Assembly (NCBI GenBank): GCA_016196465.1 | Contig: JACPXR010000035.1 | Coordinates: forward strand, 1-55,270 | DNA: 55,270 nt | Direction: 5' to 3' | Source: Candidatus Omnitrophota bacterium | GTDB taxonomy: Bacteria; Omnitrophota; Gorgyraeia; 1-14-0-20-64-10 | Part shown: in pieces, positions 4,145-55,270 of the stretch | Layout of the letters: the number at the start of each line of letters is the position of its first letter | Numbering within the stretch: position 1 is the first letter of the stretch | Made by a program: the position numbers and the translations under genes | The notes under the pieces: generated by a model | Seen by the model: only the letters and a program-made list of their open reading frames with translations | Told to the model about the DNA's origin: nothing | Database searches by the model: none

Positions 4145-5676
4145 GTGATCGGGTCGTCATTTTCGATACGACGCTCAGGGACGGGGAGCAGTGCCCCGGG
4201 GCCAGCTTGAACCCCCAGCAGAAGCTGGAGGTGGCCCGGCAGCTCGCCCGCCTGAAGGTGGACGTGATCGAAGCGGGGTTCGCCGTCTCTTCCCCGGGCG
4301 ACTTCGAGGGGGTGAACCGGATCGCCCGGGAGATCCGGGGGCCGGTGATCGCCTCCTTGGCCCGGGCGGTCCCCAAAGACATTCAGGCGGCGGGAGCGGC
4401 CTTGAAGCCGGCGAAGCGCCGGAGGATCCACACCTTCGTCGCCACCTCGGAGATTCACATGAAGTACAAGCTGCGCAAGGCGGAGGATGAGATCGTCCGG
4501 TTGGCGGTGGCGGCGGTGAAGCTGGCCCGCCGGCACACCGACGACGTGGAGTTCTCCGCCGAGGACGCCGCCCGGAGCCGACCCGACTTTCTCTTCCGGG
4601 TTTACGAGGCGGTGATCAACGCCGGCGCCACGACGGTGAACGTCCCGGACACGGTAGGGTGGGCGATCCCCTCGCAGTTTGGCGAGCTGATCCGCTCGAT
4701 CCGGGAGAATGTCCCGAACATCCGCAAGGCCGTCATATCGGTCCACTGCCACAACGACCTGGGGCTCTCCACCGCCAACAGCTTGAGCGCCGTGGCAAAC
4801 GGGGCTCGGCAGGTCGAGTGCACGGTGAACGGCATCGGGGAGCGGGCCGGGAACGCCAGTCTCGAAGAGGTGGTGATGGGGCTGAAGGTCCGGAAGGACC
4901 TCTTTGGGGCCGGGGTCAGCGTGGACACGACGGAGATCTACCGGGCCAGCCGCCTCGTCTCCAAGCTGACCGGGTTCCTCGTTCAGCCGAACAAGGCGAT
5001 CGTCGGAGGAAACGCCTTCGCCCACGAATCGGGGATCCACCAGCACGGCGTCCTCATGCACCGGAAGACCTATGAGATCATGACCCCCCAAGAGGTCGGC
5101 TGGGGGGAGTCGAAGCTGGTGCTGGGGAAACATTCCGGACGGCACGCCTTCGTGGCGAGACTTAAAGTCCTCGGGTTCCGCCTGGAGGAGAAGCGGCTCG
5201 AGGAGGCGTTCGAGCGGTTCAAGGTGCTCGCCGACAAGAAGAAGGAGGTCTTCGACGACGACCTCTCCGCCCTGGTCGAGGATGAGATCTCCGAGGTGCC
5301 CCAGCGCTATTCGCTGGAGTATCTCCATGTGACGAGCGGCACCGGCGTCATCCCCGCGGCCACGGTCCGCCTGAAAACGCCCCAGGGGAAGATCCTTCAG
5401 GGGGCCGCGAGCGGCGACGGGCCGGTGGACGCCTGCTACAACGTGATCGACCGGCTGACCGGCTTCAAGGGGAAGCTCGTCGATTACGTGATCCAGTCGG
5501 TCACCTCCGGGAAGGACGCCCTGGGCGAGGTGACGGTGAAACTCTCCCTGCCTGCCGGCAGGCAGGGCGCCCACGGGCGGGTGGAGCATGGACGGGCCGC
5601 CTCCACCGACATCATCGAGGCCTCTTCGAGGGCCTATTTGAGCGCGATCAACCGTTTGCTCCATAACAGGCGCTGA
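4141..5676 (+). CDS. leuA: 2-isopropylmalate synthase (a citramalate synthase cannot be excluded)
   Basis: ATG 4141 overlaps the ilvC stop (ATGA). N-terminus [18 protein letters not shown] and the [14 protein letters not shown] motif. 511 aa with a LeuA-type C-terminal regulatory domain. Confidence 0.88.
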
Positions 5677-6476
5677 TGGAATTACCCCTTTTAACCCGGG
5701 GGCTCGTCTTTCTCTCGGGGCTCGTGGTCGGCTCCTTTTTGAACGTCTGCATCTGGCGCCTGCCCGCCGGGGAGCAGGTGATCCGGGGCCGTTCCCATTG
5801 CCGGGGGTGCGGGCATCTGATCGCCTGGTACGACAATCTGCCCCTGTTGAGCTTTTTGATTTTGAAGGGAAGGTGCCGCTTCTGCCGGGCGAGGATCTCT
5901 TGGGTTTACCCGGCGGTGGAGTTGGCCACGGGAGCGCTCTTTCTCCTGGTCTTTCAGCGGTTCGGCCTGACCGCTGCGGGGCTGACTTACGCGGCCCTGG
6001 GGGCGGCTCTCATCCTCATCTCCGCCATCGACGCCCGGTGCATGGAGATTCCGGATGAGGTGACTTATCCGGGAATGCAGCTGGGGGTGATCTTGAGCTT
6101 CTTCACTCCCGAGCTCCACGGGGCCTCCAGCCGCTGGGGCGGACTGATCTCCAGTCTGCTCGGGGCCCTCGCCGGGGCCGGGTTTCTCTGGGTGATCGGG
6201 ACCGTCGGCTCTTGGGTCTTCAAGCGGGAGGCGATGGGCGGGGGGGACGTGAAGCTCATGGCGATGGTGGGATCCCTCCTCGGGGCGGGTAAGACCCTTC
6301 TCGTGAATCTCGGGTTTGCCCCCGTCCTCGGTTCGATCGTGGGGCTCGTGTTGAAATACCGCTACGGGAAGGAGCTGATCCCCTACGGGCCGTTTTTGGC
6401 CGCGGGGACGTTGATGGCGGTCTTCTGGGGGGATGGGATCCTCCAGTGGTACCGGAAGATCCTCTTGGGGATCTAG
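5676..6476 (+). CDS. prepilin (type IV leader) peptidase / N-methyltransferase, A24 family
   Basis: Polytopic membrane protein. Two CxxC pairs (HCRGCGH, GRCRFCRA), AIDARCMEIPDE and GGGDVKLMA aspartate motifs. Start overlaps the leuA stop (TGATG). Confidence 0.88.
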   Translation: MELPLLTRGLVFLSGLVVGSFLNVCIWRLPAGEQVIRGRSHCRGCGHLIAWYDNLPLLSFLILKGRCRFCRARISWVYPAVELATGALFLLVFQRFGLTAAGLTYAALGAALILISAIDARCMEIPDEVTYPGMQLGVILSFFTPELHGASSRWGGLISSLLGALAGAGFLWVIGTVGSWVFKREAMGGGDVKLMAMVGSLLGAGKTLLVNLGFAPVLGSIVGLVLKYRYGKELIPYGPFLAAGTLMAVFWGDGILQWYRKILLGI

Positions 6477-22626: not shown

Positions 22627-22655
22627 TTGAAATCAAAAGGGTATCCAGGTAAACT
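22627..22655 (+). promoter_or_regulatory. possible sigma70-like promoter for the 22684 gene (TTGAAA-N17-TAAACT)
   Basis: Hexamers at 22627-22632 and 22650-22655 lie in the only clearly AT-rich tract of this part of the window. Confidence 0.3.
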
Positions 22656-22683
22656 TTTACTACAAGCTACCCTGAAGAGCCCG

Positions 22684-24672
22684 ATGAGGTTAACCCAAGC
22701 GCTCACTCGAACGATAGGGATTTTCCTGTCGCTGGCCATCGCTTCGCCCGGCCCTGCCTACGGATTGCGCCAAGCCGGCCTCGAGGAGAATCCCAAGAGC
22801 CGCGGGGAGCTGAAAAGGGCCTTGACGATTCGCTCAGGATTGGAGGAGAAGGTGGTGGAAGTGAGAAACCTCGCTTTCGGCCAAGAGGTCACGGATGGGT
22901 TCGGGCATTCCGGGCCTGCCGGATTGAAGGTTAATATCCAGGGCAAGACCGTTGAGTTCGGATCGAGGGGTGTCGCCGAGATTCTCTTTCCCGGCAAGCC
23001 CGGCCGGCGGATTTATCTGGCCACCCACCACCAGATCGCCTACTGGATTCTGGCCAGGGCCTATGACCTCAGGTTGATTCCCCTCCGAGCGATCCGGCTT
23101 TTGTTCACCGACTGGCATGCGGATGATGCCATTTCCTACGAGGAGCCGCCTCTGGCTCCTTTGAGTGCGGTGGAAAGGTTTATCGGCGCCGGCAGGACCA
23201 CGACCAGCGTCAATCGGCTGGGCGCGACCCACCGGGCGGTGTACGAGGAAGATTTTGTGGATGCCCTGCTCAAGGCGGGGCTCATCGCCTCCTACGATTG
23301 GTACGGCAACCCGCGGCTTCCTCTCATGACAAAGCAGGACACCCCACAACGCTCCATCTTGGATTCTGCGCAGATCCCCCTTGCGGCAACCAACCTCGGC
23401 AGCATTGATCTGGACGTCGCCGGAGAGGATCTGGAGCATCTGCCGGAACTTTTCCCTCATCTTCTCAACCTCGCCAGAAAAAGCGAGATCAACATGATCT
23501 TCACGAGCCCCGGCTACGTGAAGGACCAGACCAAAGCGAAGTTGTTTGCCGCGGCGCTGGCCAACACGCTCATCGAGGTCAAGCGCTTGGAAGAGGAGGG
23601 GGAGATTGAGCGGCATCTCTCAGGCCGAAAGAGGGTCGAGCTAGTCCAGGCGGAAGGAACCGATCCAAAGGAGTTTGTCGATGAGCTGAACCGCCTCGGC
23701 AACGAAGCGCTGAGGTTTGTCTTATCTCAGATGGCGTTGGAGAAGGTTCTTGCGCCGATGAGACAGAGGCGGCCACGGCTCATCTTCGCTGATCTCGATC
23801 GGACCTCCTCGCCGGATGCCGATGCGCCTGCTGATCCCGAGGTACTGGCGGAAGTTCAAGCGCTTGCCCGAGAGGTCCCCGAGGCAAGGATCGTTCTTTT
23901 GACCGACCGGATGCCGGAGATTGTCCAGGAGCGCTTCGGGCGCTTCATCCCAGCCGATCTCACAGAGCGGGTCTTGGTGGCGCCGGTGGTTGGCGCTCAG
24001 GGGATGGGCTGGGTGGTTCCGCCGGAAGTGGAAGCGGTGATCGACGGCGTGATGGAGGAGGCGAGGCGGCGCGGGATTCGACCCGGGGATCCCGCTCAAG
24101 GGACTGGGAGCGGCAAGGTGCTTTTGCAGATGGACGGCAAAACCTACGGGATTGATGTCGAGTTCAATCTGGGGGAGATTCAAGCAGCCGATTTGGCGCA
24201 GAGCCGGGACAACCGATTGGAACTTGTCGCCTTGGCTCAGCGGAAGTTAGACCAAGCAGGGCTTTCCAGATTCCAAGTCTACTCAGGGGATGCCCGATCC
24301 ATCTCCATCTTTCCCCCCAAGGACGAGGGGGTCCGCTTCTGGCAGAGACGGTTTGGGGCGGCTGATGGCGAGGTCGCCTTCATCGATGACAACGGAAGCA
24401 GGCTCAGCTCCGCCCACTCAGGGCTCGTCGGAGTGGCCTCCCGCGGCGGGCTCTCAATCTGCTGCGGCACGCGCCCCGGCGATTACGAAGAACTGCCGAC
24501 CGACCTTGGAATCGTCATGACAAAAGGGCTCGCCACAGGCCCCAAAGTCGCCGCCATGGCCCTCCGGATGATCCGACAGGCCCACCGCGCCGTCGGCCTG
24601 GAGGAGGGGGAGAAGGCAGAGGCGGTGGGTGTGGGGGTCATCCAGGACCGGGAGGTGGAGAGGTGGCTTTAG
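22684..24672 (+). CDS. secreted GLEE-motif protein A: signal peptide, double-GLEE leader, His/Asp-rich N-terminal module, HAD-like phosphatase module, GLEE + 21-aa tail
   Basis: ATG 22684 gives MRLTQALTRTIGIFLSLAIASPGPAYG (signal peptide). GLEE codons at 22774-22788, 22834-22848 and 24592-24606. HAD motif I FADLDRT and motif IV-like FIDDNGS. The TTG 22627 start in the track adds a non-hydrophobic extension. Confidence 0.75.
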   Translation: MRLTQALTRTIGIFLSLAIASPGPAYGLRQAGLEENPKSRGELKRALTIRSGLEEKVVEVRNLAFGQEVTDGFGHSGPAGLKVNIQGKTVEFGSRGVAEILFPGKPGRRIYLATHHQIAYWILARAYDLRLIPLRAIRLLFTDWHADDAISYEEPPLAPLSAVERFIGAGRTTTSVNRLGATHRAVYEEDFVDALLKAGLIASYDWYGNPRLPLMTKQDTPQRSILDSAQIPLAATNLGSIDLDVAGEDLEHLPELFPHLLNLARKSEINMIFTSPGYVKDQTKAKLFAAALANTLIEVKRLEEEGEIERHLSGRKRVELVQAEGTDPKEFVDELNRLGNEALRFVLSQMALEKVLAPMRQRRPRLIFADLDRTSSPDADAPADPEVLAEVQALAREVPEARIVLLTDRMPEIVQERFGRFIPADLTERVLVAPVVGAQGMGWVVPPEVEAVIDGVMEEARRRGIRPGDPAQGTGSGKVLLQMDGKTYGIDVEFNLGEIQAADLAQSRDNRLELVALAQRKLDQAGLSRFQVYSGDARSISIFPPKDEGVRFWQRRFGAADGEVAFIDDNGSRLSSAHSGLVGVASRGGLSICCGTRPGDYEELPTDLGIVMTKGLATGPKVAAMALRMIRQAHRAVGLEEGEKAEAVGVGVIQDREVERWL

Positions 24673-29925: not shown

Positions 29926-32900
29926 TTGAAAAGAACTCGTCTCTGCTCATCTCTGCTTATCTTGGCCCTTGCTTTAAGCGGCACTCCCTCTGCCTTTGCC
30001 TTGCGCCCTCATGCCGACACCGCCGGCCTCGAGGAGAAACTCGCCCCCGCTCGCCCTTCGACAGGCTCAGGGCGAGATTCCCGCACCGGACTGGAGGAGC
30101 TTCCCTTCTGGCCGGGGGCGGCCGAGGTGGAGCCCTGGGGAGGCCCCGGCTTCATGCCGGTCCTCTTTACGAATGGAGAAGGCACCTTTGAGGTATCCGC
30201 CCATCTGTGGGATCTTCCTGTTCCGGCAGAACTGACCGCGGAGGAGAAGCGGACGGTCTACGGTCCCTGGATTTCTGACTCTCCAGAGAACCAGCGCGTT
30301 GGAGACCGTCCATTGAAGGATGCCCCCCCTCAAGTTCGCCTTGACATCGAGAAGCTTCTTCGCAGAGAGGTGGCTCAAACCCTTCACGCCCGCTACCGGC
30401 TACCCGGGGGAAACGGCGCCCTTGGAAAGGAGATGCAGGTGAAGATGGCTCTTCACAGCGTTCGCGTCTACATGCCCGGCGGGAATATCCGTTCCGGCCA
30501 GCCGAAGATGGAAGTCCTCTACAAGGCGGAAATCTCCGCCAGGGATCCTGTGGATTCCGCTTTTACGGTCCAGATCGCTTCGCCTGGCGGGAGGCAGTTT
30601 CGTCTGGGGCACAAGGGATGGATCCGGATCCAGCGGTGGAAGAGGGAGCTGAAGATGAAGCAGGCGATCCAGCCGGACGGGAAGGTGGTCCACGTGGTCC
30701 AGGTCCCCTCTTCGAGGGATGGATGGGTCCAGCGCAGGCCCCATGAGGATACCGGAACGGTGATTGAGCGGTTGGTCCATGAGGCCGCGGACCGGGCCCA
30801 GCCGGGCCAGAGGACCGTTCTGGCGGCGGACGTGGGCAGGGGGGCCGGGGCGACGGAAGGGAACGCCGACATTGTCGATCCGGAGGAAGTCTTGGATCTT
30901 TTGCCTGCCGAAGGAGGCAGCCGGGGGATCGACTGGATACACCTCTCTGAGCAAGGGATTTGGGCGGGTGTGCGCGGCCACCGGAGGGCTGAAATCGTCT
31001 TTGAAGGGACCCAAGAAAACGCCGAGGCCCTTATTCAAAACGCCAAACAGTTCCTGGAGGAGTTCCGGGGAGATTTTCCTCACTACAACGCTTGGATCGT
31101 TGTCCGGGAGGAGGGGACGGTACGCTTGGTGATCGTCCCGCGCAATTTCGGATGGTCGGACCAGGTGCTGTACATGGTTGATCTTGAATTTGACCGGCGC
31201 CGGTATCGCTTGGTGACCCGCGAGGAGGCAGACCGCTTCGGATGGCTCCATCTGGCTCCCGCGGGGAGCAGCGATTTTGTCATTCCGCCGGGCCGGCCGG
31301 TTCTCCCTTTTGCCGTGGACGCCCTCGCCCTGTACGGTTTTGTTCAAGCGCGCGATCCGGCGCATTACAACGACTGGTATTTGAAGCCCAGAATCGACAA
31401 GGGGCTTGAGCTGGCCGGCCTTCCCCGAAGCGATTCGAGGATTCAAGCCATGCTGAAGTGGATGAGGGATCATTCCGGGAAAGATCCCAAGAGGCAGGCG
31501 AGACGGGAGATCCTCAAGGCGTTCAATCTCCTCCGGAATGCCGATACCCCGGATGATCTTATTCGGCTGATCAAGGCAATCCAGGCGATGCGGCCCCGGC
31601 ATGAGGAGGCGTTTAAAGGCCTTCCCCCCCGGCTGCGGGACCGGTTTACCAGAGAACTCTGGAAGAAGATAGCGGAGTTTTCGAGGAGCCATCCCCAGCG
31701 GGTTCGGATTGAGATTTCCGCCTTGGGGGCTCCGGTGAAGCGTCACCAGAACGGAGAGCTCCCGGTGGTGGTGGGGGTCGGAGCCCCTGTCCTGGATTTG
31801 ATCGAGACGGTCGAGCAGGATACCCTCGTCGTCCGCCCCAAAGCGGGGGGCTCCCCCTTCCACATCGTTCAGACGGTCAGCGCTTTGAATGAGGTTCCCG
31901 TGGAATTGGTGGCGATGTTGGGCGGTGAGACGGGGAGACTGGTTTTTCAGGCGCTCGACGCCCAGGGGATACCGGTGACCCGGGTGGAAGGCCCTCCCCA
32001 ATGGGAGAACCGGGCGAGCGACATGGTGCCTCGTCCCGCCGCCTTGGGGTATCAAGGAGAGATCCGGCTGGTGGGCACCGGCTCTGACCCGTCGCTTGGG
32101 ATCCAGGATGTCCGGAGGATCTGGAAGGCGGTGCGGGAGAGGTTGGCTGGCAAAAAGGGCGTCGTCATCTACGGCGAGCGGATTGCGGGAAGTCGCAATC
32201 AGCAAAGGGCGGTCGCTGAGACGGTCAAGGAGGAGATGGAAAAGACGCTTCAAGAGGGACACCGGATCTGCGTTTCGTACAACGCCTCCTGGTCCGGAGA
32301 GATTGCGCGGATTCTGCTGGGTTCCGGCGCCTGGGGCGTTTTCCTGGATCTGGGGGCCCTCGCCAGCGCGGCCGGAAGTTTCGTGGAGGACCGAGAATTT
32401 CTGAGGCATATGCCCCCTTTTGTTCAGGAGAATCCGGAGCTTCTTACCGACCCCAATTTCCTTCGGGAGTATCAGGAGGAAGCGGCGCTCTTGGCCCACG
32501 CGATCCGCCTGAAACAGGACGTGAAATGGGGGCTCGTTTCTTTGGGCGCGCCCGGCTTGGTGCTGGTGCCGGGTGATGAATGGCGGCAGGGACGGCCCTC
32601 CGTCCTTCTGGGGTTTTCTTACTACCGAAGCGGCGCGGCGGATGGCGCTTTTGGGGGACTGCTGGAGGTGATGCTTCGGGAGCCGGGTCCTTCCAGCGCT
32701 CCGGCGCTTCAGGCGCTCGAGACGGCGACCACCTCTGCCGGAATTTACTCCAAGCGTCCCCCGGCCCTGCGGGGAGTCCCACCGACCGCCGATGAGATCC
32801 GGCAGGCCCCTCTTCCTGACGTGCGGGTCATTTTGCCGCCGCTCTCCGTCCGGGAGGAGGCCTATGCAAGTGAGGAGGCGAGGTTGGATTTGGAAGAAGC

Positions 32901-33339
32901 CGGCGGCCCTCCCCATCGGTTTTTTCAGGAGATTTTCAGGCATCTTGCCTCTTTTCCAGGCAACAACGATTCCGAGGGGCGGCTCGCTCCCTGGTGGAGG
33001 GCTTTAGGCCAGATGCGGTTGGGAGAGATCTTTGAGAACAGAGTGGGAAGTGCCGGAGGTCGCCTGATGCTTCTGCGGGCCCTTGCCGAGTTGCCCCAGC
33101 CTCCCGGTGGATCACTCCCTGCCCAAGAGGGAGAGGATCTTTCTGCTCGGCGCCTGCACCATCAGCAATGGAGGGAATCTCCCCAGGGCGTCTATTGGTT
33201 GATGACACGGTTGGTCCATCAATTTGAAGATCCGCTTCGGAGAGAGATTCGCTTCCTGACCGGGCTGGAGGGGAGGGGGGCAATGGTTGAGTGGGAGGAT
33301 TGGATCCGAAACGCGGGGAAACTGGAGAGAAATCTCTAA
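29926..33339 (+). CDS. secreted GLEE-motif protein B: signal peptide, double-GLEE leader, unknown N-terminal modules, PfkB/ribokinase-like module, GLEG + 21-aa tail
   Basis: TTG 29926 lies 6 nt after AGAGGAA and gives MKRTRLCSSLLILALALSGTPSAFA (signal peptide). GLEE at 30022-30036 and 30085-30099; GLEG at 33259-33273. PfkB-like KAGGSPFHIVQTVSAL...SGAADGAFGGLLE. Confidence 0.75.
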   Translation: MKRTRLCSSLLILALALSGTPSAFALRPHADTAGLEEKLAPARPSTGSGRDSRTGLEELPFWPGAAEVEPWGGPGFMPVLFTNGEGTFEVSAHLWDLPVPAELTAEEKRTVYGPWISDSPENQRVGDRPLKDAPPQVRLDIEKLLRREVAQTLHARYRLPGGNGALGKEMQVKMALHSVRVYMPGGNIRSGQPKMEVLYKAEISARDPVDSAFTVQIASPGGRQFRLGHKGWIRIQRWKRELKMKQAIQPDGKVVHVVQVPSSRDGWVQRRPHEDTGTVIERLVHEAADRAQPGQRTVLAADVGRGAGATEGNADIVDPEEVLDLLPAEGGSRGIDWIHLSEQGIWAGVRGHRRAEIVFEGTQENAEALIQNAKQFLEEFRGDFPHYNAWIVVREEGTVRLVIVPRNFGWSDQVLYMVDLEFDRRRYRLVTREEADRFGWLHLAPAGSSDFVIPPGRPVLPFAVDALALYGFVQARDPAHYNDWYLKPRIDKGLELAGLPRSDSRIQAMLKWMRDHSGKDPKRQARREILKAFNLLRNADTPDDLIRLIKAIQAMRPRHEEAFKGLPPRLRDRFTRELWKKIAEFSRSHPQRVRIEISALGAPVKRHQNGELPVVVGVGAPVLDLIETVEQDTLVVRPKAGGSPFHIVQTVSALNEVPVELVAMLGGETGRLVFQALDAQGIPVTRVEGPPQWENRASDMVPRPAALGYQGEIRLVGTGSDPSLGIQDVRRIWKAVRERLAGKKGVVIYGERIAGSRNQQRAVAETVKEEMEKTLQEGHRICVSYNASWSGEIARILLGSGAWGVFLDLGALASAAGSFVEDREFLRHMPPFVQENPELLTDPNFLREYQEEAALLAHAIRLKQDVKWGLVSLGAPGLVLVPGDEWRQGRPSVLLGFSYYRSGAADGAFGGLLEVMLREPGPSSAPALQALETATTSAGIYSKRPPALRGVPPTADEIRQAPLPDVRVILPPLSVREEAYASEEARLDLEEAGGPPHRFFQEIFRHLASFPGNNDSEGRLAPWWRALGQMRLGEIFENRVGSAGGRLMLLRALAELPQPPGGSLPAQEGEDLSARRLHHQQWRESPQGVYWLMTRLVHQFEDPLRREIRFLTGLEGRGAMVEWEDWIRNAGKLERNL

Positions 33340-49184: not shown

Positions 49185-49239
49185 TTGACAAATAGCAGCA
49201 GGGTGTGCCATAATTGTACTAGATGTATGAAACGTACAA
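49185..49239 (+). promoter_or_regulatory. sigma70-like promoter (TTGACA-N18-CATAAT) with overlapping inverted repeat TTGTAC-N14-GTACAA, likely the TA operator
   Basis: TTGACA at 49185-49190 and CATAAT at 49209-49214. Inverted-repeat arms at 49214-49219 and 49234-49239, just upstream of the antitoxin SD GGGAGG (49242-49247). Confidence 0.6.
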
Positions 49240-49252
49240 ATGGGAGGTGCGT

Positions 49253-49495
49253 ATGCGAATTTCTGCCAGTCGGGTCCGTGAAAACTTCTCGGACACCCTG
49301 AATCGGGTCGCCTATCGGAAAGAACGGATTGTGCTTCGCCGCAGAGGAAAGGACTTAGCGGCGGTCGTCCCCATCGAGGATCTCACTCTTCTTGAGGAGA
49401 TGGAGGACCGGATAGATCTCGAGGCTGCCCGGAAAGCACTGAAAGAGAAGGGAACGATTTCTTGGAACAAGCTGAAGGCTAAGCTCGGACTGTAG
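49253..49495 (+). CDS. Phd/YefM-family type II antitoxin
   Basis: ATG 49253 lies 5 nt after GGGAGG. MRISASRVRENFSDTLNRVAYRKERIVLRRRGKDLAAVVPIEDL is a typical N-terminus. Confidence 0.8.
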   Translation: MRISASRVRENFSDTLNRVAYRKERIVLRRRGKDLAAVVPIEDLTLLEEMEDRIDLEAARKALKEKGTISWNKLKAKLGL

Positions 49496-49501
49496 TTCCA
49501 G

Positions 49502-49765
49502 GTGCGATACACCCTCGAATTTAAACCTTCAGCCGCGCGCGAATTCTCTAAGCTTCCCAGACCCGTTCAGGTGAGCATCAGGCCTCGGATTGACGCCTTA
49601 GTAGATAACCCCCGTCCCCATGGTGTAGAGAAGGTTGCCGGCGGGGAGGACCTCTTTCGTATCCGAGCAGGAGATTATCGGGTTGTTTACCAGGTCCAGG
49701 ACGACCGACTCTTTATCTTGGTCGTTCGAGTCGGCCATCGCCGAGAAGTTTACCGAGGCCTCTAA
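49502..49765 (+). CDS. RelE/ParE-family type II toxin
   Basis: GTG start. RYTLEFKPSAAREFSKLP...FRIRAGDYRVVYQVQDDRLFILVVRVGHRREVY. 87 aa. Confidence 0.82.
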   Translation: MRYTLEFKPSAAREFSKLPRPVQVSIRPRIDALVDNPRPHGVEKVAGGEDLFRIRAGDYRVVYQVQDDRLFILVVRVGHRREVYRGL

Positions 49766-49854: not shown

Positions 49855-49884
49855 TTGCCAGAATCCCTCCGCTTCGGGTATATT
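49855..49884 (+). promoter_or_regulatory. possible sigma70-like promoter for the giant ORF (TTGCCA-N18-TATATT)
   Basis: Hexamers at 49855-49860 and 49879-49884, about 20 nt upstream of ATG 49905. Confidence 0.3.
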
Positions 49885-49904: not shown

Positions 49905-52900
49905 ATGAAACGCCTCAGCTTAACTCTCCCATTGGCGGCGATCTGTCTCCTGGCCGCCCTCACTGCACCCGCGACCAGCCACGCCGCAGGAGGGCGTAGT
50001 GGTGCCGCTTCCGCTAGCGGCAGCCACGCCCTGCGGCAGGAGGCCCCCGGCCGCGACGACAACCGCCCCCTGAACGACGAGCTCCGCACCGGCCTGGAGG
50101 AGCGCGTAAACTCGGTACCGGGTACCGTGAGGACAGGTTCCGCCGGGCTGGAGGAATGGCCCGGTTTCCTGGACCCGGTGGATTTCGGGAGGATCATCGC
50201 ATGGTTGAGTGAGCAGCTCTCCGAGGGACCTCTTCGAGATCCAGAAGACCGGATCACTTTGCCGGAGATCATCCGTCATATCCAAACGAGTTCGGCGTCC
50301 GGCCAGAATTTGGGCCCGTTCGGTCAGGTGTCTGGGGAGAAAGTGGCCTTCTTTGTCCAGAAACTGCCGTTTCTCATCACGGGCCAGCCGGATCCTCCAC
50401 CGGATGCGCTTCCCCACGGATATGAGCTGAAGCGTTTCTTCAATTTCTTCCTGGAGGTTGCCGTTTCTGTGCTTGAGCTAAACGAGGCAGGCACGATTCG
50501 CGCGGCGATGACATCGCGAGAAATGGCCGACCAGGTGCTGCACCGATTTTTCTCCACAACTTTATCTGATCGTCCCCCGACGCTGGGCACTTCGGAATTC
50601 AATCTTCAGATGGCGGATCTTTTCATGACAGCCGACGAACAACGGATGGCCACTTATCGCGCTTTGGAGTTTTTGCATTTCTCCGCCGGGCTGGAGGAAG
50701 TCGAGAATGTCATCGACGAGATCACGGGAAGAATCCAAGGACTTTTAAGGGGTTGGATTCCCCGGACAAGTCTTGATTGGTCGGAGAAAGAGCAAGAAGC
50801 CTTGCTCCCTCGCCTCCGTATTGTTCTCGACGCCGGAGACCTTCGAAACGAGGTCGGCCTCGTGGTCCGATGGTTCGATGGGATCGTTGGAACCAGGGCG
50901 CTGGTCGAGGCCTGGGAGGATTCCCAGCGGGCGGACGTGCTCCTGAACGCAGTGGTTTTTTATATGGGAGGTACCTCCCAATCCACGAAGGGCGACATTC
51001 GAGCCGTCAACGAACGCTTGCTGAACGGCTCACTGTCCCTGCCGTTTCTTCAGGAGGTATTCCGCTTGAATCCGGCGCTCTATGGGAGACTCCTGTTTCA
51101 CATCGGCTTGAGCTCGGGCAGGTTTGACAGTTCGAACATGCAATCGAACATTCGAAGAATTCTCGAGGGTTCTTCAGGAGAGTTGGAGCGATCGGCGCTT
51201 CTTTCTGCCTATGACGCGCATCAGGCCTCGCTGATTCCGGACTATTCTGCTCTTCAGCTGGATGAATTAGAAAGGGTACTCGCGTCGCAGCTTCCGGATC
51301 GGATCCAGCGGCTGATTTCCGCCATGGAGGGAAGTTCTCTGCCCGGCGTCGATTTTTGGAAGCAACGGATTGACGTTGCACCGTGGCAGTCGCCGGAGAA
51401 TCTCGAAAAGACGCTTCGCTGGGTCGAAGAGCAAGACTTCTTTTTGCTCGAACGCGTCGACGCCCAATGGAGGCTGTTCGAGCGATATGGAATAGAAGGT
51501 CCCCCGGTCAACAAATATCTGGAAGAGTGGGCGGATCGAGAGGGGATAGGACGGCTGGGAAGGATAGGTCTTCCTGCCACGATCGCGGCGGTTCAGTTGT
51601 TGCTGCAAGAATCCAGGGACACCCCTTCCACGTTGGAGCGAATGGAACAAATTCTGGAGCGGTTAGGCTTGTTTGCTCCGAATGGCTTAAGCCGCAGCGA
51701 GGGGATTCCTGGAGAAAATCCTTACGGGGATATCCTTTTTCTCGCTCAGTTACCAGAAGATCTCACCGCCGCATCCTCCTCAAGGACGATTTTCTTGGAC
51801 AGATGGCGTCAAGCGAAAATGGAGTTTTACCGAGATAACGGATTGGAGGTCATCCCGCCCTTTGTCCCCTTCCATCGCACCGCCGGGCTGGAGGAGCGGA
51901 AACTTCCCGGTGATTTTTCCTACGAGGCGGTCGAGATCACCCCCTACTCTCCCGCAGGCCGGCAGTTTGGGAATCGATTGGAGGAATTTCGAGGCAGATT
52001 TTTCAGGAACCGACAGACGCAACATCTGTATGTACTGGACACTCCAAGTATCTCCCTGCTGTCTCTATGGCCTACCAAGAACGATCCAGCCAGACAGTAT
52101 CTGGGGTTCCGGCTAGCCCGGGTGCTGCGGGCCAATGTGCCGGACGTTGTCTTTCCTTCGAAGTCGGAACGGAAAGTCTTCTCGGATTATCTGGGGCTTC
52201 CCTCCGGGAGTGAGATTTACCTAGAGAGAGTGACAACCGATTACAAGTTAAAGGACGAGGAAGTTCTGCAAAAGGATTCCAGGAGAGCATTCACGTGCAG
52301 TCTCGTTGTAGCGATTTTTATGCGCAAGTTCGATTTTCACGATCACAATCTGGGTCCCTTAGGAGATTCAGACATTCCCATGATGTTTGATCACGATGAA
52401 GCGTTCCAGTCCGAATATGTGAATATGGAAGACTTCACCATTGCCTTTGTCCGGAACCATTTCCCTCGCGATTCGGTGAACGCAGGCTGGATCAATCCCA
52501 ACCGGCTGTTGGAGCGGATCGACCGGGAGGAGCTCTCCCGCTCCGCGGAGGCGGTTGAGGCGCTTGATCTCTCCGGTTTCTTCGAGCAGCTAAATCGGGA
52601 TCTTCCGGAAGATCTGGATTTAGATGCAAGAATCGTTCCCCTGATCGAATATCTGAAACTTCGGCAGAGGTCCATCCGGCAAGATCTGATCAGTTTTTTC
52701 GGCTGGCTGGCTTCTCCCGATGGGAAAATGCGGATCCAGTATGGGGACAAAAACTGGACGGAAATCGGTTATTCTCGGCCTCCTCGCCTCACATTCAGAC
52801 AGATCCGCTCTGCCCTCGCCCGCGCCGGGCTGGAGGAGGCGGTGCAGTTTGTGCAGCCCGGGGAGGTTCAAGGTTTTGAGAAACCAGTCTTCAATCAGTG

Positions 52901-55270
52901 GGGAGGTAAAGATCATCAGCAATTCACCACCCTGGCCTTGCTGAATTATCTTAAGCTTGATCCATCCACGGTTGTTTTCAACGTAGCCTATGGAGATCAT
53001 CCATTGACGCTTCCAGAGCCCTGGCAGGAACCGGTCAATGTAGATCCGGATCCGTTTGCACCGCCCACTAACCCTTTGAGAGCCAAGTATCTCGTTGATA
53101 CTGTGGAAGGAGCCGTTGACAAAGGACATTCTGCCGGCGTAGTTTTGCTGTACCGACCAGGGGTGATGCCTTTTTGGAACGATCAATTCTTCCAAAAAAC
53201 GTGGGCGTTGGTTCAGCCGGGAGGATGGCTCTTCTTGATTCAGCCATTCCCATTGCGGATGATTAACAGAAGGTTAGTTGACTTTTATTCGGCCTTTCAT
53301 CAATCCATCCAGCCCAGGAGCCCCTTGGAGGTCATTGCTGTGAGTCCTGACGGCTCGCTGGATCAGGCCCTGGCGCTTCTTCTCCAGAAACCAAAATCTC
53401 CCACCACGCAGATTCCGCTTGCTCCAATTGCCACCCCCCGCGCCGGGCTGGAGGAGCCACCCAGCGATGCTGAGGTGGAGCGAGTGATCCAGTGGGCATT
53501 TGGACAAGCTCGACTGGTTGATCATTGGTTGGCTATCGGGACAATCGGCCAATGGCATGGATCGGACCAGTTTAGCGAATCTCTTGCGAAGTGGCAGAAA
53601 CCTTTCATGGCGGCTCTGTTATCGAACTTATCGGCTGCTGATGATGATTCTCTGGAAGAAAGCCAGAGGGCGCGGGTGGCATTGAAACAGTTGGCTTTTC
53701 GGGGAATTACTCCCGAGATCTTGGGATTGCCCGAGATCAGCGACCGACAACTGCGAGCCAGACTGGTACCGGGTACCGCAGGGCCAGGTACCACCTCCGC
53801 TCGGCCCGTCGGCCTGGAGGAGCGGGATCGCGAAATTCAGAGGGCCTACCAGGTTCTCCTTGCGCCGGCCGAGGATTTGAATGAGCGGTTGAAACGGTTG
53901 AGGATTGCTTTGGAGGGCTTGGATGGCGGCCAGCGGCTGAAATTCTTTCGGGAACTCCTCTGGATCATGGGCCGAAGGGAAATCCCGGAGGTCGTGGGCG
54001 CTGTTCTGAAGGGACAAGGGGAAGATTCCTCCCTTTTGAGAGAGAGATTGTTCGAGGCCATGAGAATAGATTCTGAGCGCGCAATTCTTCCGGTTCTTGA
54101 AGGAGCCCTTTCAAGACTTCATCCTCGTGAGGTTGCAACGATTTCTCTGGTTTTCATTCCCGCGGCCGCCGTCCTCCTGTCGGCAGATACCTCCGAACGC
54201 CTCCAGGATCTATTCGAGCTTTCGATCCTCAGGGCCTCTCTTCATGTTTTTGAGGAGAGAACGGAATCGGGTCAGCAGCATGCCGTACCCTATCTGAGGC
54301 TAAGCCACATTTGTGAAGTGAAGACGCGGCAGTATTCCGCCCAAGCCCTGGAACTCACCGGCACCAGCCATCCCCATCCTATGGCCTTGTACGCGGCAGG
54401 CCTTTCCATGGTCTACAGTGCCTTGGCCTCTGTTTACGCGGGGATCGATTTCGAGATGATGAATCGAGGTGAAAGGATGCTTTTTCCAATCTCAGAAAAA
54501 GTTTCAGCAAAGATCGATGCGATGAGGGCGAATATCCAAGGCGAGATCAGCACAATGACAGGTACCCTCTTCGGGCACTTGGATTTACTGCTTGCCTCTT
54601 ATCGCGGTGACGACATTCTTTCTTTGCAGCTCCTCATGTTCCGGGTTGAACTGGATCGAGCTTGTGCCACCTACTTCCGGCTCAACGGCTCAGAGGATGC
54701 GGTTGGGTACTGGCAGGATGCCCGCCGAACAGAAGAGCAAATCCAACAGATCGTTCTCAAACATGAACGTTCCCTCGGCCTGTCGGTTTCCGAAGCAGGT
54801 CTTGAGGCGGAACCGTCCAAACTGGTACCGGGTACCCAGGGGACAGGTTCCGCCGCCGCCCCGCGCGCCGGGGCGGAGGAGCCGCTTTTTCTGACGGAGA
54901 TAAACCTCCAGACGCTTGCTGGCAGGAGCGAGTTGACATCTTTCTACCGGTGGCCGAATCAGATGAGACTCTTGGAGGAGATGATTCTGCCCGATCTCTT
55001 CCAGCGTAAACCGAGCGGGGAGGTTCTCATCGTAAATCTGGCAAGTGCCATGGGAGAGGAGACTACCACAACGGCAGCCGTGGTTCTTCGAGCGAGAGAC
55101 CAATTCGTCTCAAAAGGAGACCCAACCTCGCTGAAGGTCCGCGTTGTTGGCGTGGAGATCGATCCAGAGATTCACGAGAAAGCCCGCCGCCGGCTGGCTG
55201 GTAAAGAGGGACTCTGGTTTCTCCCCTGGGGACAACCCATCGACAGAACACGACGTGCGAAAGCGCTGTT
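49905..55270 (+). CDS. secreted GLEE-motif giant protein C (3' end outside the window; at least 1788 codons): signal peptide, double-GLEE leader, at least 7 modules including kinase-like, Rossmann-methyltransferase-like and CheR-like
   Basis: Read codon by codon on every sequence line: no stop from ATG 49905 to the window end. In-frame TAG upstream at 49821-49823. N-terminus MKRLSLTLPLAAICLLAALTAPATSHA (signal peptide). Not in the supplied ORF track. No other frame has an ORF longer than about 190 aa here. Confidence 0.85.
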   Translation, partial: MKRLSLTLPLAAICLLAALTAPATSHAAGGRSGAASASGSHALRQEAPGRDDNRPLNDELRTGLEERVNSVPGTVRTGSAGLEEWPGFLDPVDFGRIIAWLSEQLSEGPLRDPEDRITLPEIIRHIQTSSASGQNLGPFGQVSGEKVAFFVQKLPFLITGQPDPPPDALPHGYELKRFFNFFLEVAVSVLELNEAGTIRAAMTSREMADQVLHRFFSTTLSDRPPTLGTSEFNLQMADLFMTADEQRMATYRALEFLHFSAGLEEVENVIDEITGRIQGLLRGWIPRTSLDWSEKEQEALLPRLRIVLDAGDLRNEVGLVVRWFDGIVGTRALVEAWEDSQRADVLLNAVVFYMGGTSQSTKGDIRAVNERLLNGSLSLPFLQEVFRLNPALYGRLLFHIGLSSGRFDSSNMQSNIRRILEGSSGELERSALLSAYDAHQASLIPDYSALQLDELERVLASQLPDRIQRLISAMEGSSLPGVDFWKQRIDVAPWQSPENLEKTLRWVEEQDFFLLERVDAQWRLFERYGIEGPPVNKYLEEWADREGIGRLGRIGLPATIAAVQLLLQESRDTPSTLERMEQILERLGLFAPNGLSRSEGIPGENPYGDILFLAQLPEDLTAASSSRTIFLDRWRQAKMEFYRDNGLEVIPPFVPFHRTAGLEERKLPGDFSYEAVEITPYSPAGRQFGNRLEEFRGRFFRNRQTQHLYVLDTPSISLLSLWPTKNDPARQYLGFRLARVLRANVPDVVFPSKSERKVFSDYLGLPSGSEIYLERVTTDYKLKDEEVLQKDSRRAFTCSLVVAIFMRKFDFHDHNLGPLGDSDIPMMFDHDEAFQSEYVNMEDFTIAFVRNHFPRDSVNAGWINPNRLLERIDREELSRSAEAVEALDLSGFFEQLNRDLPEDLDLDARIVPLIEYLKLRQRSIRQDLISFFGWLASPDGKMRIQYGDKNWTEIGYSRPPRLTFRQIRSALARAGLEEAVQFVQPGEVQGFEKPVFNQWGGKDHQQFTTLALLNYLKLDPSTVVFNVAYGDHPLTLPEPWQEPVNVDPDPFAPPTNPLRAKYLVDTVEGAVDKGHSAGVVLLYRPGVMPFWNDQFFQKTWALVQPGGWLFLIQPFPLRMINRRLVDFYSAFHQSIQPRSPLEVIAVSPDGSLDQALALLLQKPKSPTTQIPLAPIATPRAGLEEPPSDAEVERVIQWAFGQARLVDHWLAIGTIGQWHGSDQFSESLAKWQKPFMAALLSNLSAADDDSLEESQRARVALKQLAFRGITPEILGLPEISDRQLRARLVPGTAGPGTTSARPVGLEERDREIQRAYQVLLAPAEDLNERLKRLRIALEGLDGGQRLKFFRELLWIMGRREIPEVVGAVLKGQGEDSSLLRERLFEAMRIDSERAILPVLEGALSRLHPREVATISLVFIPAAAVLLSADTSERLQDLFELSILRASLHVFEERTESGQQHAVPYLRLSHICEVKTRQYSAQALELTGTSHPHPMALYAAGLSMVYSALASVYAGIDFEMMNRGERMLFPISEKVSAKIDAMRANIQGEISTMTGTLFGHLDLLLASYRGDDILSLQLLMFRVELDRACATYFRLNGSEDAVGYWQDARRTEEQIQQIVLKHERSLGLSVSEAGLEAEPSKLVPGTQGTGSAAAPRAGAEEPLFLTEINLQTLAGRSELTSFYRWPNQMRLLEEMILPDLFQRKPSGEVLIVNLASAMGEETTTTAAVVLRARDQFVSKGDPTSLKVRVVGVEIDPEIHEKARRRLAGKEGLWFLPWGQPIDRTRRAKAL
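50114..50156 (+). repeat. linker repeat copy 1: GGTACCGGGTACC-N4-GGACAGGTTCCGCC-GGGCTGGAGGA (encodes VPGTVRTGSAGLEE)
   Basis: Shares the 13-mer and the 14-mer exactly with the copy at 54824. Confidence 0.8.
53765..53822 (+). repeat. linker repeat copy 2: GGTACCGGGTACC...GGCCAGGTACC...GGCCTGGAGGAG (encodes VPGTAGPGTTSARPVGLEE)
   Basis: Same 13-mer as the other two copies, then a diverged middle section that ends in the GLEE codons. Confidence 0.75.
54824..54881 (+). repeat. linker repeat copy 3: GGTACCGGGTACC-N4-GGACAGGTTCCGCC...GGGGCGGAGGAG (encodes VPGTQGTGSAAAPRAGAEE)
   Basis: Same 13-mer and 14-mer as copy 1. The motif is degenerate here (GAEE). Confidence 0.8.

Follow-up and report, generated by a model that had tools for sequence, protein, structure and literature searches.

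A recurring Ala-Gly-Leu-Glu-Glu tag may mark the points where oversized bacterial proteins are cut or recombined

Introduction

The Omnitrophota encode the longest predicted proteins known, and whether these act as single chains or as cut pieces is an explicit open question. The published giants, the Archaeovorins (West-Roberts et al. 2023) and the 'multi-enzyme metabolic clusters' (Nielsen & Lui 2026), start with a leader followed by a domain-poor region, and chain unrelated, highly divergent domains of cytoplasmic type (methyltransferases, kinases, GNAT, HAD/phosphatases, HEAT). Cleavage is suspected in these long proteins, and they could not be split for lack of known cleavage points, 'information about cleavage points' being what their authors missed (bioRxiv 10.1101/2023.11.21.568195). 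Here we describe HYZ90_02275, a gene of the same phylum that appears to resemble the giants in these features and whose product is divided by a recurring pentapeptide, Ala-Gly-Leu-Glu-Glu and its variants. It comes from a metagenome-assembled genome (MAG) of a Candidatus Omnitrophota bacterium (assembly GCA_016196465.1) and is interrupted by the end of contig JACPXR010000035.1. The whole of this one contig, 55,270 bases, was analysed and is called the window below.

Results

An open frame interrupted by the contig end

From the ATG at 49905 to position 55270, on the + strand, 1788 codons can be translated without a single stop; upstream, the same frame is open only to 49824. The initial annotation, which worked from the letters and a list of open reading frames (ORFs), had read this frame as open to the window edge and as missing from the list for want of a terminator. 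Separate translation revealed no overlooked stop, and the ORF lister indeed skips ORFs that run off the sequence end, those listed here reaching only ≤191 amino acids (aa). The gene is thus unlisted in the ORF track but not in GenBank, where P0001, 'MAG: hypothetical protein HYZ90_02275, partial [Candidatus Omnitrophica bacterium]', starts at the same ATG 49905 and matches the 1788 aa of the window product with 100% identity and coverage. With ~3.8% stops among random codons at 55.6% GC, simple arithmetic puts the chance of 1788 open codons at ~1e-30. GC by codon position is 0.63/0.43/0.61. The frame had also been claimed to be coding, and it proved to have relatives down to E 2e-79 and two segments, M3 and M4 below, that fold confidently. 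Because the 1788 open codons are joined by an identical GenBank call, by HMMER relatives and by an AlphaFold2 (AF2) model of M3 with a predicted local distance difference test score (pLDDT) of 93, we conclude that this is a real gene in the chromosome of a Candidatus Omnitrophica MAG, complete at its 5' end, truncated at its 3' end and at least 1788 codons long, for a product predicted to be modular and exported.

A pentapeptide at the module boundaries

The product contains seven GLEE, one GAEE and one GLEA, at aa 63, 81, 262, 661, 975, 1181, 1303, 1632 and 1656. The first two classes are those counted in the initial annotation; GLEA comes in addition. Composition alone predicts 0.10 GLEE in this protein, and shuffling it 2000 times never gave more than 2. 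A motif scan located T-G-L-E-E within the leader (motif 1, aa 62–66, 50088–50102), followed by five A-G-L-E-E: motif 2 directly before the first module, M1 (aa 80–84, 50142–50156), where the relative P0002 reads RTGLEEWPGFLDP, motif 3 (aa 261–265, 50685–50699), motif 4 (aa 660–664, 51882–51896), motif 5 (aa 974–978, 52824–52838) and motif 6 (aa 1180–1184, 53442–53456). V-G-L-E-E (motif 7, aa 1302–1306, 53808–53822), the degenerate A-G-L-E-A (motif 8, aa 1631–1635, 54795–54809) and A-G-A-E-E (motif 9, aa 1655–1659, 54867–54881) complete the series, all on the + strand.

An exhaustive HMMER search was run with residues 1–1200 against 1.84 billion representative proteins, module M5 lying outside the query. 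It returned 61 relatives, of which 13 reach E ≤ 1e-30. Their matches cluster on the query stretches 57–267, 254–666, 649–979 and 973–1165, and these four blocks coincide with GLEE-bounded segments, as expected if GLEE sites split the product into domain-sized modules, which the initial annotation had proposed. Each relative carries only one or two of the blocks M1–M4, anywhere from its N- to its C-terminus, and none shows the combination found in HYZ90_02275: the modules are shuffled between proteins.

The pentapeptide is enriched in the relatives as well. In 60 of them, GLEE was observed 116 times against 3.2 expected (36-fold) and GMEE 27 times against 0.5, GQEE and GAEE variants being present too; about 35 of the 60 bear the motif. 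Aligning 173 instances, collected with a pattern that fixes G, E and E, gave the five-residue element [AST]-G-[LMQA]-E-E, every flanking position of which holds less than 0.6 bit. Across 178 kb (the window plus twelve fetched loci), two or more motifs in any frame occur in family genes only. In the best-aligned relatives, module envelopes start 2–9 aa past a motif and end 0–15 aa before the next, and the spacing between motifs is bimodal, with spacers of 7–60 aa and modules of 200–470 aa.

Since homologues of M4 that lack the motif carry unrelated residues at that spot, the fold of this module does not need it. In the AF2 model of M4 the motifs on either side of the module are in coil: motif 5 immediately follows the final helix of M3, and motif 6 is the one in a segment with pLDDT < 50. 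The element is not confined to the borders between modules: family members have one or two pentapeptides between the leader and the first module, and in complete members the last one lies 8–18 residues before the C-terminus, the tail usually ending in Ala or Ala-Ala. A processing or recognition site fits better than a passive linker, because the motif also stands after the leader and before the C-terminal tail.

The modules

Self-BLAST found no internal repeats, and the modules are unrelated to one another and to protA and protB, two further family members described below. Searched against Pfam, NCBIfam and PDB sequences, the whole product matched nothing but CheR, below threshold and at its extreme end, and protA and protB had essentially no direct matches in the same three collections. 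A word-index protein search with the full product retrieved itself alone, and profiles of the motif and of the leader yielded nothing useful with this tool, which cannot reach the family. The family was uncharacterised before, its members matching no Pfam or NCBIfam model.

M1 (aa 85–261, 50157–50687) and M2 (aa 266–660, 50700–51884) have no Pfam match. M1 recurs in the relatives P0002, with 67% identity and E 2e-79, P0022 and P0048, and M2 occurs at differing positions in P0005, P0009, P0035 and P0052.

M3 (aa 665–974, 51897–52826; 46 relatives) has a HipA/CtkA-like protein-kinase fold in its AF2 model (pLDDT 93, predicted template modelling score 0.92). The best Foldseek matches were CtkA 3akk and HipA 2wiu/3tpv, at probability 1.0 and with template modelling (TM) scores of 0.40–0.44; together with 4pu5, they had probabilities of 0.99–1.0 and E values of 1e-4 to 8e-3. 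In an alignment of 23 sequences, D146, N151 (Asp-x4-Asn) and D165 are invariant and K48 is kept in at least 90% (module numbering); these would be the Lys that binds adenosine triphosphate (ATP), the catalytic-loop Asp-x4-Asn and the metal-binding Asp, roles assigned by pattern and not by superposition. M3 thus shares with HipA and with Helicobacter pylori CtkA, which is likewise secreted, the protein-kinase-like fold and the Lys / D-x4-N / Asp signature. It differs from them by an identity of ~11%, the modest TM scores, an added C-terminal helical subdomain and its embedding in a multi-module protein. The Pfam model HipA_C (PF07804) does not match M3 of HYZ90_02275 and matches 6 of the 23 relatives weakly, at best with E 0.0011, below the curated cutoff.

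M4 (aa 979–1180, 52839–53444; 8 relatives) has, from its alignment, AF2 model and Foldseek matches, a class-I methyltransferase fold of the type that uses S-adenosylmethionine (SAM). Foldseek gave 178 matches at E ≤ 1e-3, the top ones mostly methyltransferases (3vse, 3cjt, 3ofk, probability 1.0), and the AF2 model shows a Rossmann-type core with pLDDT 75–97. The Gly-rich SAM motif I is degenerate in HYZ90_02275, NVAYGDHPL as opposed to NVGSG(V/I)RPL in the relatives, and from these residues this copy of M4 is possibly a catalytically inactive pseudo-enzyme.

M5 (aa 1185–1302, 53457–53810), which ends in a PGT/Gly-rich linker, and M6 (aa 1307–1631, 53823–54797) have no detectable family, and no relatives of M6 were found in JGI metagenomes. 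M7 (aa 1660–1788, 54882–55268), cut by the contig end, probably corresponds to the N-terminal 40% of a CheR-type SAM-binding methyltransferase domain: it scores 26.4 bits against Pfam PF01739 (cutoff 27) over profile positions 2–82 of 195, the rest lying beyond the contig end. Further modules seen in the relatives are a small-domain/PrmA-type methyltransferase, a GlnD-type nucleotidyltransferase, PP2C, alpha/beta-hydrolase, GNAT, WD40 and HEAT.

The leader

The protein had been said to start with a clear signal peptide, and its N-terminus (aa 1–27, 49905–49985) is indeed signal-peptide-like by hydropathy and by conservation of the leader across relatives. It reads MKR, a hydrophobic core (Kyte-Doolittle window > 1.6 at residues 1–25) and SHA↓A, the relatives having P-x-A-F-A↓L-R-P (arrows, presumed cleavage points). 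Alignment of 26 members showed that the family leader ends in ...P-x-A-[FWL]-A-L-R-[PQ]. The copy of this signature in HYZ90_02275, HALRQ (aa 41–45, 50025–50039), lies ~15 residues beyond the hydrophobic core, and the Gly/Ser/Ala-rich insert between them, AGGRSGAASASGS (aa 28–40, 49986–50024), looks like a local duplication of ...SHA as far as its letters tell. Besides the leader, a hydropathy scan found no transmembrane helices except one borderline hydrophobic segment inside M6 (~aa 1408–1428, ~54126–54188; mean Kyte-Doolittle up to 1.97 over 19 residues).

Relatives that share M3 alone include AT-rich Omnitrophota, in which the kinase stands alone, the pentapeptide is absent and a related leader is present; both GTDB loci carrying M3 belong to a Candidatus Omnitrophota bacterium. 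Two such stand-alone kinases (locus L008, 4656–5816, and locus L009, 9386–10894, from Candidatus Omnitrophota MAGs of GC 0.36–0.38) have a leader ending in G-F-C-L-S-P. This parallels A-F-A-L-R-P, and the leader signature may serve export or sorting across the whole phylum.

Family members and the probable size of the gene

The window holds three family genes within 55 kb, protA and protB being paralogues of HYZ90_02275. protA (22627–24672, +) encodes 681 aa from a TTG, the likely start Met being at 22681, with an AYGLRQ leader and motifs at aa 51, at aa 71 and 25 aa from the C-terminus. In protB (29926–33339, +; 1137 aa) the leader is AFALRP, the motif stands at aa 34 and again at aa 55, and a TGLEG lies 25 aa short of the C-terminus. 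These two genes flank gltB. The GC content at third codon positions (GC3) is 0.73 in protA, 0.71 in protB and 0.61 in HYZ90_02275, compared with 0.80–0.90 in neighbouring housekeeping genes; in korA and korB, relative to which the initial annotation had judged the codon usage of HYZ90_02275 more AT-rich, it is 0.88.

The initial annotation had called HYZ90_02275 a giant, the largest gene of the window and of unknown true size. Its truncation holds; 'giant' is probably an overstatement, the 11 complete motif-bearing members ranging from 0.66 to 2.3 thousand aa (kaa). No longer orthologue or copy showing the 3' end was found in GTDB genomes or JGI metagenomes. Because M7 covers only the first 82 of the 195 CheR profile positions, the gene must, judging from this profile, run at least ~110 codons past the contig end. 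Given the complete members, the remainder of M7 and a presumed final motif and tail, the full protein is probably ~2–2.5 kaa rather than a giant of more than 30 kaa.

At two of the loci fetched for relatives, the orthologous members P0027 and P0033 are each preceded by a methionine sulfoxide reductase (PMSR) gene (L004, 402–935; L005, 9329–9862), the only conserved neighbour among the loci examined. A small PilZ gene (L001, 7776–8039) lies ~2.3 kb downstream of the member P0009; pilZ genes are reported downstream of most Omnitrophota giant genes (West-Roberts et al., bioRxiv 10.1101/2023.11.21.568195).

Genomic context

The neighbourhood is chromosomal, with ilv/leu genes, aroC/aroK, dprA, topA, xerC, lipid-A and lipopolysaccharide genes, gltB, thiC, nadA, korAB and a Phd/ParE pair. 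A plasmid or mobile-element setting was rejected: megablast against plasmids was empty, the neighbours are housekeeping genes, and 'korAB' encodes 2-oxoacid:ferredoxin oxidoreductase subunits, not plasmid partition functions. A circular contig in which the frame would resume at the window start was rejected too, position 1 onward belonging to a different, GC-rich gene.

GC is 0.52–0.59 over HYZ90_02275 and 0.62–0.68 in the rest of the window. Directly upstream lie a Phd/YefM antitoxin gene (49223–49495) and a ParE toxin gene (49502–49765), whose GC3 (0.55–0.63) is low like that of HYZ90_02275; the final 6 kb of the contig may form one island of distinct composition. A strong promoter-like site (49185–49214) stands by this pair. 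For HYZ90_02275 itself, a consensus match gave a promoter-like site, TTGCCA-18-TATATT (49855–49884, +), ~20 nucleotides (nt) 5' of the start codon, and no strong Shine-Dalgarno (SD) sequence was found before ATG 49905.

Discussion

HYZ90_02275 very probably has the anatomy described above: a truncated gene for a conserved leader and shuffled, unrelated modules, with the pentapeptide in exposed linkers at every boundary, including those of the N-terminal spacer and of the tail. The Ala-Gly-Leu-Glu-Glu tag may show at which points such oversized proteins undergo cleavage or recombination. The interpretation that we favour, tentatively and with slightly less than even confidence, is an array of effectors that resembles a polyprotein, leaves the cell interior through Sec and is processed or recognised at the pentapeptide. 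The precursor would be exported by Sec, to judge from its basic n-region, hydrophobic core and A-x-A before L-R-P. A protease would then recognise the pentapeptide and free the modules from one another, in the way of MARTX toxins and viral polyproteins, and would likewise cut off the spacer peptides at the N-terminus and the tail at the C-terminus. The modules would act within or upon a second cell, as effectors in the dependence on hosts or prey that has been proposed for Omnitrophota, because they are cytoplasm-type enzymes that need ATP, SAM or acetyl-CoA (the kinase and methyltransferases here; PP2C, GNAT and nucleotidyltransferase in relatives). The effector role is favoured by the best structural match of M3, a secreted bacterial kinase, and by the PP2C, GNAT, hydrolase, nucleotidyltransferase, WD40 and HEAT modules that relatives carry, a range like the one reported for Omnitrophota long proteins (bioRxiv 10.1101/2023.11.21.568195).

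Several points weigh against this interpretation. No protease was found in the window, in the assignable modules or beside the relatives; M1, M2, M5 and M6, four of the seven modules, have neither an assigned fold nor a Pfam family, so a built-in protease could lie there. Export is deduced from hydropathy and leader conservation, and the ALRQ signature of this protein is displaced from the hydrophobic core. If the borderline segment in M6 were a membrane helix, it could put the CheR-type M7 in the cytoplasm. Most motif-bearing relatives come from Logan, ENA and JGI contigs that bear no taxonomic label. Finally, as the search pattern fixes G, E and E, the logo overstates these positions, the k-mer enrichment being unbiased. 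A prepilin-peptidase-type site, of the form G↓hydrophobic...E, was considered and rejected, the pentapeptide being far from membrane helices and its Glu differently spaced. The window contains a prepilin (type IV leader) peptidase gene (5676–6476), between leuA and aroC and apart from any pilus or secretion genes of the window.

It could be argued that the conserved element is the DNA and the peptide a by-product, GCCGGGCUGGAGGAG acting as an SD-like pause or internal start, as an RNA structure or as a Chi-like hotspot with the core GCTGGAGG. We consider such a primary function at the nucleotide level very improbable. The DNA consensus of the motif, GCCGGGCTGGAGGAG, does hold GGAGGA, a perfect complement of the anti-SD, and its codons are biased in 12 family genes (GCC 47/53, z 7.8; GGG, z 4.7; CTG, z 2.8; GAG, z 4.9 and 2.7). 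The octamer GCTGGAGG, which differs by one base from Chi of E. coli, is found 20 times in the window where 5.1 copies are expected, 18:2 in favour of the + strand, 15 copies lying outside HYZ90_02275. However, this octamer excess cannot be told from coding bias, since it follows coding-strand Leu-Glu codons with nearly all genes on the + strand. The element is frame-locked, in one orientation, inside family genes only, and relatives often lose the SD core through GAA. No start codon stands at a consistent distance after GGAGGA, residues +1 to +3 are variable, and genuine gene starts in the window mostly lack strong SD sites; once GC is corrected for, RNA folding around the motif shows no excess (p = 0.46). 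These results largely refute RNA structure and internal initiation. The biased codons are the major codons of the contig's housekeeping genes, which accounts for the bias without a role for the DNA. The motif Leu is encoded by CTG, CTC, CTT, TTG and TTA, the motif Gly by all four codons, and at locus L005 the motif Glu is GAA in 7/10 sites, with a GAA background of 69%. Because Leu and Gly are kept through synonymous change, Glu follows the GAA background and RNA structure is not enriched, we conclude that the constraint acts on the peptide, the codon bias most plausibly reflecting the use of major codons at a critical site. This leaves room for a secondary role of the motif as a recombination seam. 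Were that its main role, the product would be an intact multi-domain exported enzyme scaffold, its pentapeptides serving as neutral, flexible joints that are maintained by module exchange at their coding sequence; we regard this as a serious contender that is nevertheless on balance doubtful. It would be akin to VENN of CdiA and DPXGL of Rhs, borders where toxin modules swap. The shuffling of modules in relatives speaks for it, as do three motif copies of HYZ90_02275 identical over 15 nt (GCCGGGCTGGAGGAG), the synonymous bias of GCC, GGG and GAG, and motif DNA 11-14-mers present in family genes only (13 vs 0 in 117 kb); the shared frame and orientation of the copies would keep exchange in frame. 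Yet the biased codons are, again, the major ones of the genome, nucleotide identity stops at the motif edges, and 15 nt is short for RecA-dependent exchange. A neutral seam, moreover, would not retain Leu, Gly and Glu through synonymous change, and needs neither duplication after the leader nor a place before the conserved C-terminal tail. Processing and seam roles are not mutually exclusive.

The pentapeptide might instead be recognised without being cut, for instance through Glu methylation by the CheR-type module, envelope cross-linking, or binding of a secretion adaptor or a chaperone. Such a modification or docking site would agree with a linear motif that has sharp limits and lies in disordered linkers, HYZ90_02275 has a CheR-like module, and [AST]-x-x-E-E may resemble the first half of the chemoreceptor methylation consensus. 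But no such module was found in five other full-length members, positions after E-E are unconstrained, unlike those of chemoreceptor methylation sites, and no candidate partner was found, which makes this explanation improbable. Nor do we think it likely that HYZ90_02275 is only the beginning of a true giant of the Archaeovorin type (Omnitrophota, >10,000 aa), the bulk of which would lie past the contig end. The source of HYZ90_02275 is Omnitrophota, the giants described so far begin with a signal peptide and an N-terminal region poor in domains and carry multiple enzymes, giant genes are often broken by assemblies, and M3 is also found in proteins of 7010 and 5684 aa, the former clustering with a named Candidatus Omnitrophota protein. 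Against this stand the sizes of all 11 complete motif-bearing members, the borderline segment as the sole hydrophobic stretch beyond the leader, where no transmembrane helices were found, and the lack of the pentapeptide in the long proteins that share M3.

These long proteins have recurring peptides of their own. P0018 (7010 aa; its cluster includes HOW58973.1, Candidatus Omnitrophota) contains R[SA]E[VLI]R 18 times at domain-scale spacing, with RSEVR 9 times against 0.008 expected, and P0060 (5684 aa) contains [RK]3-SPSG 9 times (e.g. KRKSPSG), also at domain-scale spacing. They share only M3 with HYZ90_02275, have no GLEE, and both end in ...AA, like most tails of the GLEE family. The two proteins suggest that junction tags in Omnitrophota long proteins may be lineage-specific. 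One may go further and suppose that the pentapeptide belongs to the cleavage or junction code of a polyprotein strategy used throughout the Omnitrophota, in which effector strings carry lineage-specific tags ([AST]G[LMQA]EE, R[SA]E[VLI]R, [RK]3-SPSG) served by dedicated proteases; this is a speculative extension that we hold to be rather unlikely. If true, the tags would supply the missing 'cleavage points' for dissecting giants of 30-147 kaa, in silico and experimentally.

A tag at every module boundary of a smaller, more tractable family makes the cleavage question concretely testable, and giant proteins could be divided at such tags before their structures are predicted. The family itself is a new group of unannotated, predicted exported multi-enzyme proteins that includes a HipA/CtkA-like kinase of secreted type, and its members are candidates for the effectors of a predatory or parasitic phylum that is still little understood.

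How does this family compare with known modular systems? With polymorphic toxins (VENN/CdiA, DPXGL/Rhs-YD) it shares a short conserved peptide that borders exchangeable modules and whose coding sequence is unusually conserved. Those toxins have one border, between a conserved body and the toxin tip, whereas the GLEE family has up to ~10 borders per protein and many unrelated modules; Rhs, CdiA, YD and filamentous haemagglutinin domains were not detected in HYZ90_02275 with Pfam and NCBIfam. MARTX toxins of Vibrio and relatives are likewise single secreted chains with a strain-variable effector array, released at short Leu-containing linker sites. In contrast to them, HYZ90_02275 has a putative Sec-type leader, its site is another one and no protease was found, and RTX repeats, a cysteine protease domain and a type I secretion signal were not detected by Pfam and NCBIfam in the available 1788 aa, the C-terminus lying beyond the contig. 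Viral polyproteins, cut by picornavirus 3C, potyvirus NIa or coronavirus Mpro, offer the parallel of one short motif at every junction of unrelated domains, with free flanks and copies near the termini too; HYZ90_02275 differs in being cellular and chromosomal and in that no protease was found, and its cleavage is putative.

The Omnitrophota giants remain the nearest relatives in kind. They exceed 30 kaa (genes of more than 90 kb), as opposed to at least 1.8 and probably ~2–2.5 kaa here, and their numerous transmembrane helices were not seen in HYZ90_02275 by hydropathy; the GC-rich lineage and the recurring pentapeptide also set this gene apart. Of the domain set of the giants, kinase, methyltransferase and CheR-type modules were found, and glycosyl transferase, hydrolase, peptidase and NUDIX were not, four modules being unassigned. 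A recurring motif is mentioned in neither of the two Omnitrophota giant-gene papers when these are searched for 'motif' (bioRxiv 10.1101/2023.11.21.568195; bioRxiv 10.64898/2026.06.07.730766), and a full-text literature search for the pentapeptide returned nothing relevant. The junction tag is thus new, in that it is unreported in the literature searched. The proteins that carry it are of a known kind, the long multi-enzyme exported proteins of Omnitrophota, to which HYZ90_02275 is tied by an M3 module shared with proteins of 5.7–7.0 kaa, the 7010-aa one from Candidatus Omnitrophota.

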